Shown: positions 3,086-38,467 of the stretch, piece after piece
Layout of the letters: every line of letters starts with the position of its first letter
How positions within the stretch are numbered: position 1 is the first letter of the stretch
Virus record (IMG/VR): IMGVR_UViG_2850796239_000007
Span: 1-38,467 of that record
Direction: 5' to 3' (one strand)
DNA length: 38,467 nt
DNA from: a virus
Taxonomy: Duplodnaviria > Heunggongvirae > Uroviricota > Caudoviricetes
Made by a program: the position numbers and the translations under genes
The notes under the pieces: generated by a model
The model's database searches: none
The model's input: only the letters and a program-made list of their open reading frames with translations
What the model was told of the DNA's origin: nothing

Positions 3086-3904
3086 ATGTGTCAGGTATTT
3101 GGTGTATCCAGGAGCGGTTATTACAACTGGGTACAGCATGAACCCTCAGACAGAAAACAAAGTGATGAGCGGCTAAAACTGGAGATTAAGGTGGCACATA
3201 TCCGCACTCGCGAAACATATGGAACCCGGCGGCTCCAGACGGAGCTGGCAGAGAATGGCATCATCGTTGGTCGTGACCGACTGGCACGTCTTCGTAAGGA
3301 GCTAAGGCTACGCTGTAAGCAGAAACGCAAGTTCAGAGCGACTACGAACCCGAACCACAATCTGCCAGTTGCGCCAAATCTGCTGAACCAGACGTTCGCT
3401 CCTACAGCACCAAATCAGGTCTGGGTGGCGGACCTGACGTATGTTGCCACACAGGAGGGATGGTTGTACCTCGCTGGCATCAAAGATGTTTATACGTGCG
3501 AAATTGTCGGCTACGCCATGGGAGAGCGCATGACAAAAGAGCTGACAGGTAAAGCCCTGTTTATGGCGCTCAGGAGCCAGCGCCCACCTGCCGGGCTAAT
3601 CCACCACTCTGATCGAGGTTCACAGTACTGCGCATACGATTACCGGGTCATACAGGAGCAGTTTGGTCTGAAAACATCAATGTCGCGTAAAGGTAACTGT
3701 TACGACAACGCTCCGATGGAAAGCTTCTGGGGAACGCTGAAAAATGAGAGCCTGAGCCACTATCGTTTTAATAACCGGGATGAAGCCATCTCAGTAATAC
3801 GGGAATACATTGAGATTTTCTACAATCGTCAGCGTCGTCACTCTCGTCTGGGGAATATCTCCCCGGCAGCCTTCAGGGAAAAATATCATCAGATGGCTGC
3901 TTAA
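3086..3904 (+). CDS. IS600 OrfB (DDE transposase catalytic part)
   Basis: 272 aa; -1 frame relative to OrfA. Confidence 0.9.
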   Translation: MCQVFGVSRSGYYNWVQHEPSDRKQSDERLKLEIKVAHIRTRETYGTRRLQTELAENGIIVGRDRLARLRKELRLRCKQKRKFRATTNPNHNLPVAPNLLNQTFAPTAPNQVWVADLTYVATQEGWLYLAGIKDVYTCEIVGYAMGERMTKELTGKALFMALRSQRPPAGLIHHSDRGSQYCAYDYRVIQEQFGLKTSMSRKGNCYDNAPMESFWGTLKNESLSHYRFNNRDEAISVIREYIEIFYNRQRRHSRLGNISPAAFREKYHQMAA

Positions 3905-3947
3905 AAAAAGAACAAATGGTAGTGTCCGCTATTGCCAGTACACCTCA

Positions 3948-6102: not shown

Positions 6103-6162
6103 GGCTGTGTCCCTTAATCATCTGAGCTATAGTAACTGTCTGTTTACACAACATATTGAACT

Positions 6163-6612
6163 ATGGCTCGCTACGACCTTCCCGATGAGGCATGGACCAT
6201 CATCAAGCCCCTGTTACCTCCTGAACCCGCCACACCACGGGCCGGACGCCCATGGGCTGAGCACCGTAAAATCATCAATGGCATGTTCTGGGTGTTATGT
6301 TCCGGTGCACCATGGCGCGATTTACCCGAACGATATGGGTCATGGAAAACTGTTTATAACCGCTTTAACCGATGGTCAAAGTCAGGCGTGATTAATATTA
6401 TTTTCAACAGGTTGCTTTCGCTACTTGATGCAAACGGCTTTATTGACTGGTCTGCCACCGCGCTGGATGGCAGTAATATCCGGGCGCTGAAATGTGCCGC
6501 CGGTGCTCAAAAAAACATCCCGATATCGACGGAGATAATGGGCTGGGTCGCTCTCGCGGCGGTTTTGGCACCAAAATCCATCTGGCAACAGACGGAAGTG
6601 GCCTCCCGTTAA
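6163..6612 (+). CDS. IS5-family transposase OrfA
   Basis: 149 aa, MARYDLPDEAWTIIKPLLPP...; contains A AAA AAC slippery heptamer at about 6511..6517. Confidence 0.8.
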   Translation: MARYDLPDEAWTIIKPLLPPEPATPRAGRPWAEHRKIINGMFWVLCSGAPWRDLPERYGSWKTVYNRFNRWSKSGVINIIFNRLLSLLDANGFIDWSATALDGSNIRALKCAAGAQKNIPISTEIMGWVALAAVLAPKSIWQQTEVASR

Positions 6613-7007
6613 ATATCGTGCTAAGCCCCGGACAAGCTCATGAAAGCCAGTTCGCGCAACGACTTCTGGACGGGATTGGCGTTCAGCGTCAGAACGGCAG
6701 CATGAAACGCCGTGGACATGCGGTACTGGCTGATAAAGCGTATTCAGGGCGCGCATTGCGCAACGAGCTGAAAAATAACGGTATAAAGGCAGTAATCCCC
6801 CGAAAGTCAAATGAGAAAATGGCATCGGATGGACGTGCACAGCTTGATCGTGATGCGTACCGCAATCGTAATGTCGTTGAACGGTGCTTTGGGCGGCTGA
6901 AAGAATATCGCCGCATCGCCACGCGTTACGACAAAACGGCGAGAAATTACCTGGCGATGGTGAAACTGGGCTGCATCCGACTCTTTTATCAACGCTTACG
7001 TAATTAA
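6492..7007 (+). CDS. IS5-family transposase OrfB (DDE domain), -1 frame
   Basis: 171 aa in -1 frame overlapping OrfA. Confidence 0.8.
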   Translation: MCRRCSKKHPDIDGDNGLGRSRGGFGTKIHLATDGSGLPLNIVLSPGQAHESQFAQRLLDGIGVQRQNGSMKRRGHAVLADKAYSGRALRNELKNNGIKAVIPRKSNEKMASDGRAQLDRDAYRNRNVVERCFGRLKEYRRIATRYDKTARNYLAMVKLGCIRLFYQRLRN

Positions 7008-7020
7008 GGGACACAGCCTA

Positions 7021-7170
7021 GCATCCAGTAATCAGGTTAGCGAATTAACAATGTGGGTTAAACGACTGGTCAGTCAACTGAAAAAAGCTAAGCCTGACTG
7101 CAAATTACCGGAGAAGGCGATGGATTACCTGAAGCGAAATGGACTGATAAGCGTGGAGGATGTTTTACGA
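7021..7170 (+). pseudogene. 3' part of small gene interrupted by IS5-family copy 1
   Basis: in-frame continuation of 6013..6102. Confidence 0.45.
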
Positions 7171-7252
7171 TGACCTGGCCTGAAGCATTCACCACGGTAG
7201 GAATTGCAATGGCGGTGGCGCTGGTTGTGTATTCGATTTGCCGCTGGGGGTA
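7169..7252 (+). CDS. possible 27-aa hydrophobic peptide (MTWPEAFTTVGIAMAVALVVYSICRWG)
   Basis: ATGA overlap with upstream ORF stop; very short, unverified. Confidence 0.2.
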
Positions 7253-7259
7253 AGGTAAA

Positions 7260-7278
7260 CCAGCCCCGAACGGGCTGG
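7260..7278. terminator. hairpin CCAGCCC-(CGAAC)-GGGCTGG between convergent genes
   Basis: 7-bp GC-rich stem; U-rich on minus strand side. Confidence 0.4.
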
Positions 7279-7282
7279 TAAT

Positions 7283-7570
7283 TTAAAGAGGTAATTTGAT
7301 GATGGCTGTCAGTGCGCCAACAGCAACGACGAGCATGCCACCAAATCTGACGGTCAGTTGCAGGCTGAGTTTGTCTATTTTTGCATCAAGGGCTGCAATG
7401 TCGTTTTTTAGTTCAGTTCTGACATCATTTAGGTCGCGCTTTGTGGCGACTTCTGCGGCTTCGTGAGAATCTTTCACTGCGGCAGATATAGCGCGCGCCT
7501 GAGCTGCCGGCATTCCTGCGGCTTCCAAGGTTTCGACGAACTTCAGTGTATCAAAATAGACCTGAGCCAT
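7283..7570 (-). CDS. DUF1640-like coiled-coil protein with C-terminal TM helix
   Basis: 95 aa; ATG with AAGGAT SD; family recalled from prophage annotations. Confidence 0.55.
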   Translation of the reverse strand: MAQVYFDTLKFVETLEAAGMPAAQARAISAAVKDSHEAAEVATKRDLNDVRTELKNDIAALDAKIDKLSLQLTVRFGGMLVVAVGALTAIIKLPL

Positions 7571-7657
7571 GTTAAATCCTTCGTTGTTGGGGAATATTGT
7601 TAGTTTAGCCTGTAGTGGCTGTTGACGACAACGTTAATCCGGGGCTATATTCCTCAC

Positions 7658-7735
7658 GCGCCAGCAAAATCTGGCGTCGGGATTGGCGTCCCGGATGTTT
7701 ACGGAGCGATATGAGACGCGTCCGCGTCTTTTTTC
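7658..7735 (+). ncRNA. candidate short terminated RNA (c4/IsrK-like), copy upstream of ORF6N gene 1
   Basis: promoter TTGACG-18-TATATT (7622..7651); hairpins at 7659..7676 and 7677..7692; terminator 7714..7735. Confidence 0.4.
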
Positions 7736-7897
7736 ATATCGTTTGCACAGTCACATTCGCGATTTATGGCGGGCTGTGTGGGGGAGCCGAAAGGCTCGCC
7801 GGTTTCCGTACCCGGTTACGCCAACCCTGCACAGTTCGCCACCAGTTCGATTGGCGTCGTCGGTGGCGATAATTTCCAAATGTACGGAGTTATCGTT
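7736..7897 (+). promoter_or_regulatory. structured leader of ORF6N gene 1
   Basis: GNRA hairpin GAGCC-GAAA-GGCTC 7784..7797; ACGCCAAC site 7818..7825; hairpin TCGCCACC/GGTGGCGA 7846..7869. Confidence 0.5.
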
Positions 7898-8446
7898 ATG
7901 ACCACTCAAATCTCTGTTGAAACTCTCTCCCCGATCGCCCATAACCAGATACCTGTTATTACCACTGAACTTTTGGCGCAGTTGTACGGCACAGAAGCGA
8001 TTCGCATTCAGCAAAATCACGCCAGAAACGCTGAACGTTTTATTGAAGGTAAGCATTTTTATAAGTTAGTGGGCGATGAGCTTAGAGGTATGAAGCACAG
8101 ACTATCTTTAAGCGAGTCTGTGAAAATTGCCCGTAACGTTCGCTCCCTCATTCTCTGGACAGAACGCGGAGCAGCACGTCACGCCAAAATGCTCGAAACC
8201 GATCAGGCGTGGGAAGTATTCGAAAAATTGGAAGACTGCTACTTCAACCAGTACGAGAAAGATCGGGCTACGGGGAAAATGAACATCGATATTCACCTGG
8301 CGATCCGTGATGATAAAACTGCCTTCATCCGAAGTTATGCGCCTGGTCAGCTGGTGACGGTTGAAGAAGCCCTGATGTTGCTTAAATCGCGCGGATGGCT
8401 GGTAATGCCGCGAGATGAACTTGCCGGAAAATTAATGGAGCTTTAA
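7898..8446 (+). CDS. antirepressor-family protein, ORF6N-type N-terminal domain
   Basis: 182 aa from ATG 7898 (MTTQISVETL); paralog of 12010..12567; C-terminal motif shared with Rha protein. Confidence 0.6.
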   Translation: MTTQISVETLSPIAHNQIPVITTELLAQLYGTEAIRIQQNHARNAERFIEGKHFYKLVGDELRGMKHRLSLSESVKIARNVRSLILWTERGAARHAKMLETDQAWEVFEKLEDCYFNQYEKDRATGKMNIDIHLAIRDDKTAFIRSYAPGQLVTVEEALMLLKSRGWLVMPRDELAGKLMEL

Positions 8447-8460
8447 CTGGTTAAATTAGC

Positions 8461-8486
8461 CCCGATATGGGAATTCCCATATCGGG
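8461..8486. repeat. 26-bp perfect palindrome CCCGATATGGGAATTCCCATATCGGG
   Basis: 15 bp downstream of ORF6N gene 1 stop; not followed by a U-run. Confidence 0.5.
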
Positions 8487-8675
8487 AGAACATTACCACC
8501 GGGGATAAAATGATTTGCGGTGAAAGGGAAGTTAAGTAGAATTGCTGCGGGTGCTTGAGGCTATCTGTCTCAGGCATGAACACCAAAAGGCAGATGAGAA
8601 GCCCCAGTTAACATTACGCGTCCTGCAAGACGCTTAACATTAATCTGAGGCCAATTTCATGCTAGGCTGTGTCCC

Positions 8676-26280: not shown

Positions 26281-27309
26281 ATGAGCGCATTTACTCCTGC
26301 GACTACTATTGTGTCGCCGTCAATGGTGCTGCCGGAAATGATCGTGCAACAGAGCATGGCTTCCGGGGCGTTTGAAGTCCTGGCCGGTGGTGCTCCAGCG
26401 GTAAAAATCAGTTCCAGTGATTTGATGGTCTATCAGAAATATCTGCGCATGACCTCGCAGGCGCAGGTCAGCCAGTCTCTGCCGGGTCAGTTACCGTCTT
26501 CCAGTATCTCTGGCGGCTATGACGGAATGATGACTTACCGAATTTCTTCCCGCTCGCAATACAGCTATCTCGATACTGATGCAGCAGATCGCTGGGGCTA
26601 TTCTCTGATTGAAGGCCTGCGCCTGGCTAACCGTCAGGGACACGCTCAAATGTTGCGTAATATGCTGCTGTATGGCGTGAATGCAGCTAATAACGAGGGG
26701 ATCACCAACTCACCGAACGCAGTGACGCTGAATCTGGGCAACGACAGCAAAGGTAACGATTCGTACACCACCTGGGATTCCGGCGAGATGGCTAAATTTA
26801 TGCTTGGCCTGATTGCTGACCAGAAAACCCGCATGTTGCTGCTGGGGCAGCCATTAACGACTGTTATTCTGAGCCCACAGCGATTCATGAAGGCGCTGGA
26901 GTGGACAGGAATTGTTGAGCTGACCAGTTACCAGCGTCCTGGTGGTGGTACCGGAACGGTGGGAACGATGGTTAAAGACGTCGCCGATAAGGCGACAGGC
27001 GACGACATCATGTTCTGCTAGGACGACACGCTGATCGGTAAAGGCGCTGGTGGTAATGACCTGATCATCGTTACGAACCCGACGATTGAGGTTCCGGAAG
27101 CGCGTCACACCATTAACACCAATATTTTCTCCACGCTGGTACCTAACCAGCAGGCCGTCAACGTGATGTTCTGTGATATGGCAGCGCCGACGGAAATCCC
27201 GTCCCCTATGCCGGATGGCGGCCTGACCACGTTGTATACCATGCGCGCGACGCCGGGCTGGAACTTCCGCCCTGAGGGGATCACCCTGTTGTCTGCCAAA
27301 TACGCATAA
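26281..27309 (+). pseudogene. major capsid protein candidate with in-frame amber codon
   Basis: ORF 26281..27018 continues in the same frame after TAG at 27019..27021 to TAA at 27307..27309 (342 codons total). Confidence 0.5.
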
Positions 27310-27365: not shown

Positions 27366-27836
27366 ATGAAGCTCTACATCGCTAACTGCTCACGTCAGCC
27401 GCACACGTTCAACTACAAACTCCCCGAAAAAACGCAGTCGTTCGGTGTGACAATTCCGTCCGGACGTCAGCATATGATCGAAAATCAGTCCGATATTATC
27501 GACCACATCATCCGACAGCATGAGCCTTACGGATTCCAGCGTTGTGACAAGGTGGACAAGAATTTTTCCGGTATCTGCTATTCCATCGATAAACCTGTGA
27601 GCGTCGGTCGCATTGAGGATTGCGCGGAGCAGAAAACGGAAAATCTGGAATCCCTGTCAGAAGAAATTCTTGCAGCCAGCGCCGTATCGCTGAATAACGC
27701 AGTGGATCAGGCAGTGATTCAAAGTGGCGAAAAACCTCAACCGGGTGGTATTGAAATGGAAATCACCGGGGAAGCGATTAACACTGAACAGGAAAATCCG
27801 CCCAGCACAAAGCGAAATATTAAGGTTAAAAAATAA
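27366..27836 (+). CDS. hypothetical head/neck protein
   Basis: 156 aa from ATG 27366. Confidence 0.45.
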   Translation: MKLYIANCSRQPHTFNYKLPEKTQSFGVTIPSGRQHMIENQSDIIDHIIRQHEPYGFQRCDKVDKNFSGICYSIDKPVSVGRIEDCAEQKTENLESLSEEILAASAVSLNNAVDQAVIQSGEKPQPGGIEMEITGEAINTEQENPPSTKRNIKVKK

Positions 27837-27961
27837 TGACCTTGCGTCCGTCACTGGAGGGATTTATTCGCTTTGTTCGTGACGACATGAAAGTATCGGT
27901 TCACGCTATTGCTGACGATGATCCGACGCTGGAATGTTGCTTTCAGTCTGCTATGGAGCTA
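27836..27961 (+). pseudogene. 5' part of structural gene interrupted by IS5-family copy 3
   Basis: joins in frame with 28879..29193 to give a 146-codon ORF. Confidence 0.5.
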
Positions 27962-28021
27962 GGCTGTGTCCCTTAATCATCTGAGCTATAGTAACTGTCT
28001 GTTTACACAACATATTGAACT

Positions 28022-28471
28022 ATGGCTCGCTACGACCTTCCCGATGAGGCATGGACCATCATCAAGCCCCTGTTACCTCCTGAACCCGCCACACCACGGG
28101 CCGGACGCCCATGGGCTGAGCACCGTAAAATCATCAATGGCATGTTCTGGGTGTTATGTTCCGGTGCACCATGGCGCGATTTACCCGAACGATATGGGTC
28201 ATGGAAAACTGTTTATAACCGCTTTAACCGATGGTCAAAGTCAGGCGTGATTAATATTATTTTCAACAGGTTGCTTTCGCTACTTGATGCAAACGGCTTT
28301 ATTGACTGGTCTGCCACCGCGCTGGATGGCAGTAATATCCGGGCGCTGAAATGTGCCGCCGGTGCTCAAAAAAACATCCCGATATCGACGGAGATAATGG
28401 GCTGGGTCGCTCTCGCGGCGGTTTTGGCACCAAAATCCATCTGGCAACAGACGGAAGTGGCCTCCCGTTAA
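28022..28471 (+). CDS. IS5-family transposase OrfA (copy 3)
   Basis: identical 149-aa product. Confidence 0.8.
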   Translation: MARYDLPDEAWTIIKPLLPPEPATPRAGRPWAEHRKIINGMFWVLCSGAPWRDLPERYGSWKTVYNRFNRWSKSGVINIIFNRLLSLLDANGFIDWSATALDGSNIRALKCAAGAQKNIPISTEIMGWVALAAVLAPKSIWQQTEVASR

Positions 28472-28758
28472 ATATCGTGCTAAGCCCCGGACAAGCTCAT
28501 GAAAGCCAGTTCGCGCAACGACTTCTGGACGGGATTGGCGTTCAGCGTCAGAACGGCAGCATGAAACGCCGTGGACATGCGGTACTGGCTGATAAAGCGT
28601 ATTCAGGGCGCGCATTGCGCAACGAGCTGAAAAATAACGGTATAAAGGCAGTAATCCCCGAAAGTCAAATGAGAAAATGGCATCGGATGGACGTGCACAG
28701 CTTGATCGTGATGCGTACCGCAATCGTAATGTCGTTGAACGGTGCTTTGGGCGGCTGA
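28351..28758 (+). pseudogene. IS5-family transposase OrfB, frameshifted in copy 3
   Basis: CCCCC to CCCC at about 28654 changes reading frame. Confidence 0.6.
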
Positions 28759-28878
28759 AAGAATATCGCCGCATCGCCACGCGTTACGACAAAACGGCGA
28801 GAAATTACCTGGCGATGGTGAAACTGGGCTGCATCCGACTCTTTTATCAACGCTTACGTAATTAAGGGACACAGCCTA

Positions 28879-29193
28879 ATCCCTCACGATCAGGGGCTGG
28901 AGCGTTTACCCATCATCTATGTGCGAACGGTTTATAACGCTGCCGCCTCATTTCTCCTGAATTTCGCTCCCGGCTCGTGGTTTGCCGACCTGAGAAAAAA
29001 ACTCAACCTTGGGAAACTGGCTACCGGGCTTGTCAGCGCGGCAGCAGACCAGGGGACATCTGGTTCGATCACCATCAGCGACGCGCTGAGTAATCTGTCT
29101 TTGCTGGATTTGCAGATGTTACAGGATCCGTATGGACGACAGGTTGTTGCGGTGCTGATGCAGATGGGCACGGTATGGGGTTACACGCCATGA
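28879..29193 (+). pseudogene. 3' part of structural gene interrupted by IS5-family copy 3
   Basis: in-frame continuation of 27836..27961. Confidence 0.5.
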
Positions 29194-29630
29194 AACTTTG
29201 TTTTGGGGTTATCGACCAGCCGTATGACTACGGCGACGAACTGGGAAAAACCACGTTTGACGTGGCCTGTGACCTCGAGGAGCGATACGAAATTTTTACG
29301 CACTTCTGGGAAATGCATAAGGACGAGATTATCCAGGAGGCAGGTACTGAACTGGCGTACCAGTTGGTCAATCACTTCAAGTATAAGGCTCCGCTACCTG
29401 GCGAGCATTTTCTGGAAGGGACCGGGAAGATTTTCCATATATTTCTTGAAACCGAAGAAATGGCCGGAATGACGATCAACGGAAATCAGGTCCCAACCCA
29501 GGCTGCGTTACAGGGTGTTAACTCAAGGCTTAAGGACAAATATACCGGGGAGCGGCGCCCGTCATTCATAGATGGCGGCCTGTTTAAGGGCAGCTTTATA
29601 GCGTGGATAGATAACAATGCCGAGTCTTGA
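29190..29630 (+). CDS. hypothetical tail/neck protein
   Basis: ATG in ATGA overlap with upstream stop. Confidence 0.5.
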   Translation: MKLCFGVIDQPYDYGDELGKTTFDVACDLEERYEIFTHFWEMHKDEIIQEAGTELAYQLVNHFKYKAPLPGEHFLEGTGKIFHIFLETEEMAGMTINGNQVPTQAALQGVNSRLKDKYTGERRPSFIDGGLFKGSFIAWIDNNAES

Positions 29631-30561
29631 AGAATTAGCCGAACAGCACAGTTCGCAGCTCTCGTCCGTTCTTAAATCCGCAGTTGAAACCATCTCGTCA
29701 GACTAGGAAATCACGTTCAGGCTCTATGTCCGGCAGGTTCTGCCGCTGGATGGCTTTGTCTATTGGGTTAATGCGGAAATCATCAGTTGCGATGAACTGT
29801 GTCGTCTGAATATTGAGTCACCAACTCGTCTGAAAATCAAAGGCAGCCTGCATCGTCAGATTATTGCGATTCAGGACGAGTCTGTCTCGAAGGATGTGAA
29901 CAACATTATTTTCACGCCTGTTCAGCAGGTTGATGATTTTAATGTGGAAAATCCCGATGCGATCTATCTCGGTGAGTACGGCGGCGTCCAGTTCGCTTTT
30001 TCTCGAATGGAGAGCCGCTATCAGCAGTCGGGTATTTTTCATTATCGCGGCATGGCGATTTTTCCAACCATGCGTTCCCAGATTATCGACTGCGAGGAGG
30101 ATATCAGCGACGAGCAGATCATATCCAACAGCATCCCGATCTGGCTGCAAATGAAAGATGCCGCGACCGTGTATCCGTCTTACCTGGTACCGCAGAACCT
30201 TCGCCCTCCGTATATCGCGGTGGATGTTCGCAACAGTATTCCATTGCAGGTGGCTCCCGTTGTTTTCGGTGGTGAGCGATTCCAGCTCGTCCAGGATTCG
30301 GTTCGCCTGACGCTTTATGGATTCAGCAATAAAATGGCGCTGGATCTTGTCGACTCGGTGGTGAACAGGGCGCTGGAGGAGGAAAAGTTTGGTGTAACCA
30401 ATATTCCGGTGGTTCAGGACGCAAAGTCGGGACAGGTTGAAATCAACGCTCTGGCGAAGAAAAAGATTGTCGATTTTGACGTGAATTACTACCAGAGCAC
30501 CGCCCGGGAAATATCCCGGCAGTTGATTGAAAAAGTCATTTGTAAATATGAGGTTAAATAA
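29617..30561 (+). pseudogene. structural protein with in-frame amber codon at codon 30
   Basis: ATG 29617 overlapping upstream gene; TAG at 29704..29706; frame open to 30561. Confidence 0.5.
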
Positions 30562-32639: not shown

Positions 32640-34597
<1,958 letters not shown>

Positions 34598-37087: not shown

Positions 37088-37290
37088 TTATTCCTCTGGG
37101 TAAGCTGAGCTAATCAAGGTATCTTCCTGCATACGATTAATATGAGATGTGGTTCTTTCATCAATAACCTTTCCATCAAGTACCGTCTGAGTTGTGATAT
37201 TGATTGTCTGAGGCTGAATATTTACTGACGGCTTGATAACCTTTAAATCTTGTGTGAATGTTTCCACTCGACCTTTCAGATTATTTAATG
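37088..37290 (-). pseudogene. 3' fragment of unknown gene W, interrupted by IS911
   Basis: frame open from the IS911 boundary to stop 3 nt upstream of gene X start. Confidence 0.35.
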
Positions 37291-37298
37291 TGAAGTGG

Positions 37299-38467
<1,169 letters not shown>

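Follow-up and report, generated by a model that had tools for sequence, protein, structure and literature searches.

An ISSfl7-like element splits the rac47 homolog of a decayed Rac-like prophage, and the apparent frameshift in its transposase is most probably a consensus error

The IMG/VR virus record IMGVR_UViG_2850796239_000007 (38,467 nt; hereafter the window, meaning this whole stretch of DNA) holds a decayed Rac-like myovirus prophage in which the homolog of the phage gene rac47 is cleanly split by an insertion sequence (IS). The inserted element is ISSfl7-like and belongs to the IS5 family; it is the third of three copies in the window and is flanked by a duplicated TA dinucleotide. As assembled, this third copy differs from the other two by a single base, a run of four C residues (C4) in place of five (C5), which truncates its second transposase open reading frame (ORF), orfB. 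Our overall reading is that an old ISSfl7 insertion sits in a decayed Rac-like prophage and that the missing C is most probably an error of the consensus sequence, and we give this reading a probability of roughly 85%.

The 5′ part of the interrupted gene (27836-27961, plus strand) contains codons 1 to 42, and in translation 42 of 42 codon positions align to rac47 of Escherichia phage Rac-SA53 (KU052037). The 3′ part (28879-29193, plus strand) supplies codons 43 to 146 and the stop codon and overlaps the start of the next gene, a rac48 homolog, by 4 nt. Once the IS and one TA are removed, the two parts join in frame into 441 nt encoding 146 codons and a stop, as a preliminary description of this DNA, made from the sequence alone, had stated. 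A homology search with the reconstructed ORF, which had been proposed there as a check, gave a gapless match to Rac-SA53 rac47 (441 vs. 441 nt), with 437 nt and 144 of 146 amino acids (aa) identical. Across the junction the uninterrupted Rac-SA53 gene reads GGAGCTAATCCC, with a single TA; the occupied site in the window reads GAGCTA, then the IS, then TAATCC, vs. GAGCTAATCC at the empty site. Because the alignment is gapless and the empty site holds only one TA, the boundaries of the IS and the 2-bp target-site duplication (left TA at 27960-27961, right TA at 28877-28878) can be regarded as proven. Without this reconstruction, the 5′ part runs on into the IS and appears as a chimeric ORF of 46 aa (27836-27976).

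We considered whether the flanking sequences might never have been one gene and merely happen to be in frame, since one in three random joins would be. This can be rejected as practically incredible, because the joined sequence aligns without gaps, at 437 of 441 nt, to an unbroken gene of equal length, and the junction coincides exactly with the single TA. In addition, residues 1-146 of the reconstructed protein match positions 1-145 of 145 of phrog_6356 (E = 1.1e-72), and more than 70 full-length homologs of 145-158 aa were found. The element would have entered a CTAA site at codon 42/43 of the rac47 homolog by cut-and-paste transposition with a DDE transposase, duplicating the TA.

The same site coincides with the end of a deletion in a related prophage. 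An Escherichia coli copy of the prophage (GCA_030346105.1) lacks 3.06 kb, joining rac47 to rac51 (window equivalents 27961 and ~31859), and the left endpoint of this deletion is the exact TA used by copy 3; the two ends read CTAA and TTAA, and a single TA remains. The deletion could be the footprint of an IS-mediated deletion or excision, or it could have arisen by microhomology between the TAA sequences.

Repeat finding, ORF analysis, and a three-way alignment placed the copies of the element at 6103-7018 (copy 1, plus strand), 8665-9580 (copy 2, minus strand and thus inverted relative to copy 1), and 27962-28876 (copy 3, plus strand). Copies 1 and 2 are 916 bp long, carry C5, and have both orfA and orfB open, while copy 3 is 915 bp as assembled. 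The base-by-base comparison showed that the C run is the only difference among the three: copies 1 and 2 read AATCCCCCGAAAG across it, and copy 3 reads AATCCCCGAAAG, with CCCC at 28656-28659 instead of CCCCC. All three copies end in the terminal inverted repeats GGCTGTGTCCCTTAAT, perfect at 16 of 16 positions at both ends (27962-27977 and 28861-28876 in copy 3), and all three are flanked by TA, their target sites in the window being CTAG, CTAG, and CTAA. In copy 3, orfA (28022-28471, plus strand) encodes 149 aa in the zero frame and overlaps orfB around a slippery run of seven A residues (A7, 28368-28374). A -1 frameshift on this run, a mechanism suggested by the sequence, would fuse OrfA to OrfB. 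The conceptual 281-aa OrfAB fusion of copies 1 and 2 scored 321.5 bits against the NCBIfam model NF033580 (transpos_IS5_3), for which the cutoff is 110 bits, and its residues 3-275 aligned to profile positions 2-257 of 258; only the -1 fusion produces such an end-to-end match. A precomputed match of OrfB to the Pfam family DDE_Tnp_1 was also present.

Members of the IS427 group of the IS5 family have been described as having direct repeats of 2 bp, a pair of overlapping ORFs with a motif for frameshifting, and a DDE triad that is complete only in the fusion protein (PMC3281130). The element in the window has short inverted repeats, a 2-bp target duplication, overlapping ORFs with a slippery motif, and an IS5-family DDE transposase, and from its sequence we classify it as an ISSfl7-like element of the IS5 family with IS427-group architecture. 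RefSeq copies named “IS5-like element ISSfl7 family transposase” on Shigella and E. coli plasmids and chromosomes are 99.3-99.9% identical to it over 915 nt. Compared with these RefSeq-named copies, the element agrees in its length of ~0.9 kb, its 16-bp inverted repeats, its TA duplication, its overlapping ORFs with the A7 motif, and its end-to-end match to the DDE model, and it differs in nothing of substance apart from the one C-run base by which copy 3 departs from its siblings, probably through an assembly error. The element matched 176 plasmid records, 130 of them from Shigella, and 32 places on a single chromosome labeled as E. coli; in older Shigella annotations ISSfl7 goes by the name ISSfl1. 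An ISSfl7 insertion in a coding sequence has been reported before, in fimD of Shigella boydii strain CIP52-54 (PMC4374849).

Two further observations concern the copies themselves. Copies 1 and 2, in inverted orientation and both within CTAGCAT sites, enclose 1.6 kb (7021-8662), a layout that resembles a composite transposon. The enclosed segment is a diverged paralog (78-90% identical) of 11731-12366, a region with an ORF6N-domain gene downstream of the Q antiterminator. At window position 28401, all three copies have G; in S. boydii ATCC 9905, the ortholog of copy 3 carries A. The shared G could reflect homogenization among the copies by gene conversion, or it could be a strain-specific change.

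The window is 100% identical over 21,437 nt to CP026875.1, which we take to be the chromosome of S. boydii ATCC 35964. This strain name is the one given for the adjacent accession CP026876.1, which we presume to be the plasmid record that accompanies CP026875.1. An exact look-up of the 46-aa chimeric ORF found it in CP026875.1, in S. boydii ATCC 9905 (AERN01000081.1, where the product is annotated as EFW53616.1), in QWSH01000241.1, and in the Logan assembly of SRR3793777. The occupied site was absent from the 5,426 complete E. coli genomes searched, none of which covers 80% or more of 27700-29300. The insertion thus appears restricted to the S. boydii records found by the exact-protein look-up, and the lack of an E. 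coli genome with the occupied site suggests that it is a fixed feature of an S. boydii lineage. Its presence in ATCC 9905 and in contigs of short-read type indicates that the insertion in rac47 is real and inherited, and it would be sufficiently old for several S. boydii isolates to have it in common.

The preliminary description had also stated that the change from C5 to C4 breaks OrfB. For the sequence as assembled, this is accurate. The C4 run shifts the OrfB frame after ...NNGIKAVIP, and the ORF stops early at 28758 (28351-28758, plus strand; 135 aa), with loss of the segment YRNRNVVERCFGRLK. With C5, orfB of copy 3 would reach 28865 and encode the same 171-aa OrfB as copies 1 and 2. The truncated OrfB still includes the second aspartate region (DKAY) but ends ahead of YRNRNVVERCFGRLK, a segment that we take, from the usual IS5-family signature, to carry the catalytic glutamate. 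Several lines of evidence suggest that the change is not a mutation at all; it was a read error in the C run that the preliminary description had named as the observation that would overturn its claim.

First, C5 is present in the orthologous insertion of S. boydii ATCC 9905, where OrfB is intact at 171 aa. Second, the missing base belongs to a series. Over the 21,437 nt shared with ATCC 9905, the window shows four substitutions and seven indels, and every one of the seven is a 1-nt deletion in the window within a run of G or C: at 13754 (G6 to G5), 19664 (G6 to G5), 23488 (G5 to G4), 23530 (G4 to G3), 25734 (G5 to G4), 25843 (C5 to C4), and 28656 (C5 to C4, the run in copy 3). There are no insertions in the window and no changes in runs of A or T. 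When runs of at least five bases in the ATCC 9905 version were counted, 6 of 24 G/C runs were shortened in the window, vs. 0 of 103 A/T runs (Fisher P = 2.6e-5). Third, seven contigs of short-read type (3.1-8 kb), each covering part of the region, differ from the window by no more than one substitution, and wherever they cover 19664, 23488, 23530, 25734, or 25843 they have the longer run. By analogy with these neighboring deletions, we conclude that C4 in copy 3 is very probably an artifact of the long-read consensus. The one-base shortening would then be an undercall, and copy 3 would be a normal ISSfl7.

Some observations point the other way. The short-read contigs stop at the IS boundary, so that C4 in copy 3 is judged from the six neighboring deletions rather than refuted directly, and ATCC 9905 is a different strain, in which case a real, strain-specific deletion is conceivable. 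Such a deletion would have arisen by slippage in copy 3 of S. boydii ATCC 35964 and would leave OrfA and a truncated OrfAB lacking the catalytic glutamate, that is, a nonautonomous element that the transposase of other copies could still move through its intact inverted repeats. In its favor, C4 stands in the sequence as given, with a predicted product that lacks YRNRNVVERCFGRLK, homopolymers are naturally prone to slippage, and the prophage and its host genome do contain real pseudogenes, such as those with amber codons common to ATCC 9905. We nevertheless consider it unlikely. The same 21.4 kb contain six more one-base deletions, all in G/C runs, that are contradicted by independent assemblies, with essentially no substitutions to accompany them, and natural slippage is hard to reconcile with the sparing of the longer and commoner A/T runs and with so lopsided a ratio of deletions to substitutions.

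The same C4 allele occurs elsewhere, which raised a second alternative, that it marks a defective ISSfl7 lineage multiplied by mobilization in trans in Shigella dysenteriae and S. boydii, of which copy 3 would be a member or into which it would have been converted. By exact look-up, loci encoding the 135-aa C4-type product were found only on CP026824.1, a chromosome of >1 Mb, at no fewer than 10 loci. Among the copies on this chromosome, which occupy unrelated loci, all 11 of the 11 examined (at least 11 in total) have C4 together with a linked C-to-T change at IS position 759, and this combination could be a genuine allele; it stands with the two points above as evidence against an artifact, with the limit that 10 of the 11 copies had been selected for C4. 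A cluster listing added the C4-type product in CP026875.1 and in a record with VDG accessions, for which S. dysenteriae is the only name given by the source: the identical 135-aa product is annotated as VDG88444.1 in this S. dysenteriae assembly, and two one-residue variants occur in CP026875.1. If it existed, such a lineage would be a full-length, nonautonomous IS derivative without the catalytic glutamate that spreads naturally, reaching twelve or more copies in some Shigella genomes.

We regard membership of copy 3 in such a lineage as highly improbable. Copy 3 lacks the 759 C-to-T marker and is otherwise identical to its C5 neighbors, and since the orthologous insertion in ATCC 9905 has C5, C4 would have to have arisen after the insertion rather than come with a donor that already had it. 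It was through a search for the C4 product that the CP026824.1 copies were selected, and they bear further scattered one-base deletions (IS positions 79, 106, 191, and 570) of a kind typical of unpolished repeats. In the block summary, the C4-type product falls into six blocks, four with contigs of >1 Mb and none with contigs under 5 kb; the intact product falls into 50 blocks spanning all contig sizes. Each record examined for the C4-type product was a contig of >1 Mb belonging to a complete assembly (CP026824.1 or CP026875.1). The C4-type C terminus was found in none of the cluster members named from Shigella sonnei, S. dysenteriae 155-74, or ATCC 9905. In the ATCC 9905 assembly, one copy of ISSfl7 is called with six C residues here (C6; its product ends VIPPKVK), suggesting that miscalls of the run go in both directions. 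Both the CP0268xx Shigella genomes and the VDG (NCTC) records presumably come from PacBio sequencing, in whose assemblies repeats are polished least well. A literature search found nothing on the strain or its accessions, nor on PacBio homopolymer errors in Shigella.

The conclusion that copy 3 is “probably immobile,” drawn in the preliminary description from the broken OrfB, was overstated. Even if C4 were real, orfA, the slippery site, and the perfect inverted repeats would all be retained in copy 3. The window also contains two identical copies with both frames open, the nearer ~18 kb away, and from their sequence they could supply transposase in trans. Since its ends are intact and open-frame copies are at hand, copy 3 would at most be nonautonomous, and we reject the idea that it is immobile.

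We were also interested in what the rac47 product might do. An AlphaFold model of the product of the rac47 homolog (mean predicted local distance difference test score 78.9, predicted template modeling score 0.74) has a predicted fold that matches head-to-tail adaptors of the HK97 gp6/SPP1 gp15 type. Its adaptor-type counterparts were the E217 gp27 head-to-tail connector (9.0), the FCWL1 adaptor, the XM1 head completion protein, and the Pam3 adaptor (7.5 each), HK97 gp6 (6.5), and Mu gpJ (6.0). The gene order is capsid-like rac45, rac46, rac47, rac48, rac49, and tail sheath rac50; the rac47 homolog thus lies two genes downstream of rac45, which weakly matches phrog_264 (major head protein), and three genes upstream of the one for the tail sheath (phrog_205). 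In its position between capsid-like and tail sheath genes of a contractile-tail phage it resembles adaptors such as gp27 of Pseudomonas phage E217 (PDB 8fvh). In sequence it differs from them, with only 9-17% identity and no match to a Pfam connector family or a PDB sequence. The reconstructed protein matched no Pfam family at an E value of 0.01 or better and no NCBIfam model, a profile search of PDB sequences gave nothing at an E value of 1 or better, and a Foldseek search of BFVD gave a single significant match, to an uncharacterized protein. It therefore belongs to no curated connector family by sequence, its sole family match being phrog_6356, which PHROGs labels “unknown function.” Because of its predicted fold and its position between the capsid and tail sheath genes, we infer that the rac47 product is probably a head-to-tail adaptor seated on the portal, in keeping with the earlier designation of the interrupted gene as structural.

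The surrounding prophage resembles Rac-SA53, a full-length Rac-type phage, in that the genes of the structural module, terS through rac52, follow the same order and encode proteins that are 90-100% identical. It also has, as expected of a Rac-type prophage, a trkG-like TrkH gene downstream of the lysis genes. Unlike Rac-SA53, the Shigella copy is defective and lacks the Rac-SA53 toxin genes, and the later Rac-SA53 tail genes that we queried (rac54-56, bppV, rac63-64, and tail1-2) had no match in the window. Several of its lesions are real. The split of rac43 by an IS110-family element (23491-24942) and the ISSfl7 insertion in rac47 are both present in ATCC 9905, and the CAG-to-TAG amber codons in rac45 (27019-27021) and rac49 (29704-29706) must be genuine because they are common to that strain. 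The tail sheath gene rac50 encodes 28 residues fewer than in Rac-SA53, and rac53 (tape measure/lytic transglycosylase) is cut off by IS911 near 33780, past the stretch compared with ATCC 9905. The frameshift in terL at 19664 and those in rac44 at 25734 and 25843 are probably G/C-run artifacts.

Other mobile elements and genes in the window complete this picture of its content. A near-identical pair of IS110-family elements lies at 13755-15210 and 23488-24942; each has a minus-strand transposase ORF (13784-14980 and 23483-24712, respectively) that matches NF033542, “IS110 family RNA-guided transposase.” These ORFs encode 398 and 409 aa, respectively, a length difference that coincides with the G-run deletions at 23488 and 23530. 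Nested IS3-family debris occupies 33780-34347, 37290-37858, 3696-3947, and 34346-34597. Two inverted IS911 segments, 99.5% identical to IS911 of Shigella phage Sf6, truncate the rac53 homolog, and a 252-bp repeat is common to the IS3-family debris and an IS3-family element at 3086-3904. Four tRNA genes (Met-CAT, Arg-TCT, Thr-TGT, and Gly-TCC) lie at 12775-13085, downstream of the homolog of the prophage Q antiterminator; a tRNA cluster downstream of Q is found in many lambdoid prophages. The TrkH-family potassium transporter gene (trkG-like, 16511-17986), with the lysis genes on one side and terS on the other, fits a Rac-type prophage.

The comparison with ATCC 9905 has a practical consequence for anyone reading genes from this genome. 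CP026875.1 carries about one spurious one-base G/C-run deletion per 3 kb, and “frameshifted” genes in it, such as the transposase, terL, and rac44, should therefore not be counted as pseudogenes unless checked. This warning about frameshifts is the main practical value of the analysis. A smaller gain is a functional label, head-to-tail adaptor, that may now be attached to phrog_6356, currently listed as of unknown function. That insertion sequences multiply and prophages decay in Shigella genomes is textbook knowledge. An ISSfl7 copy landing in a decaying prophage of this genus is an ordinary event of an already known kind and carries little biological weight. With amber codons in rac45 and rac49 and other IS insertions in the same prophage, the insertion in rac47 was probably selectively irrelevant; because the prophage was already dead, loss of the putative adaptor gene would have had no further consequence for host or phage.

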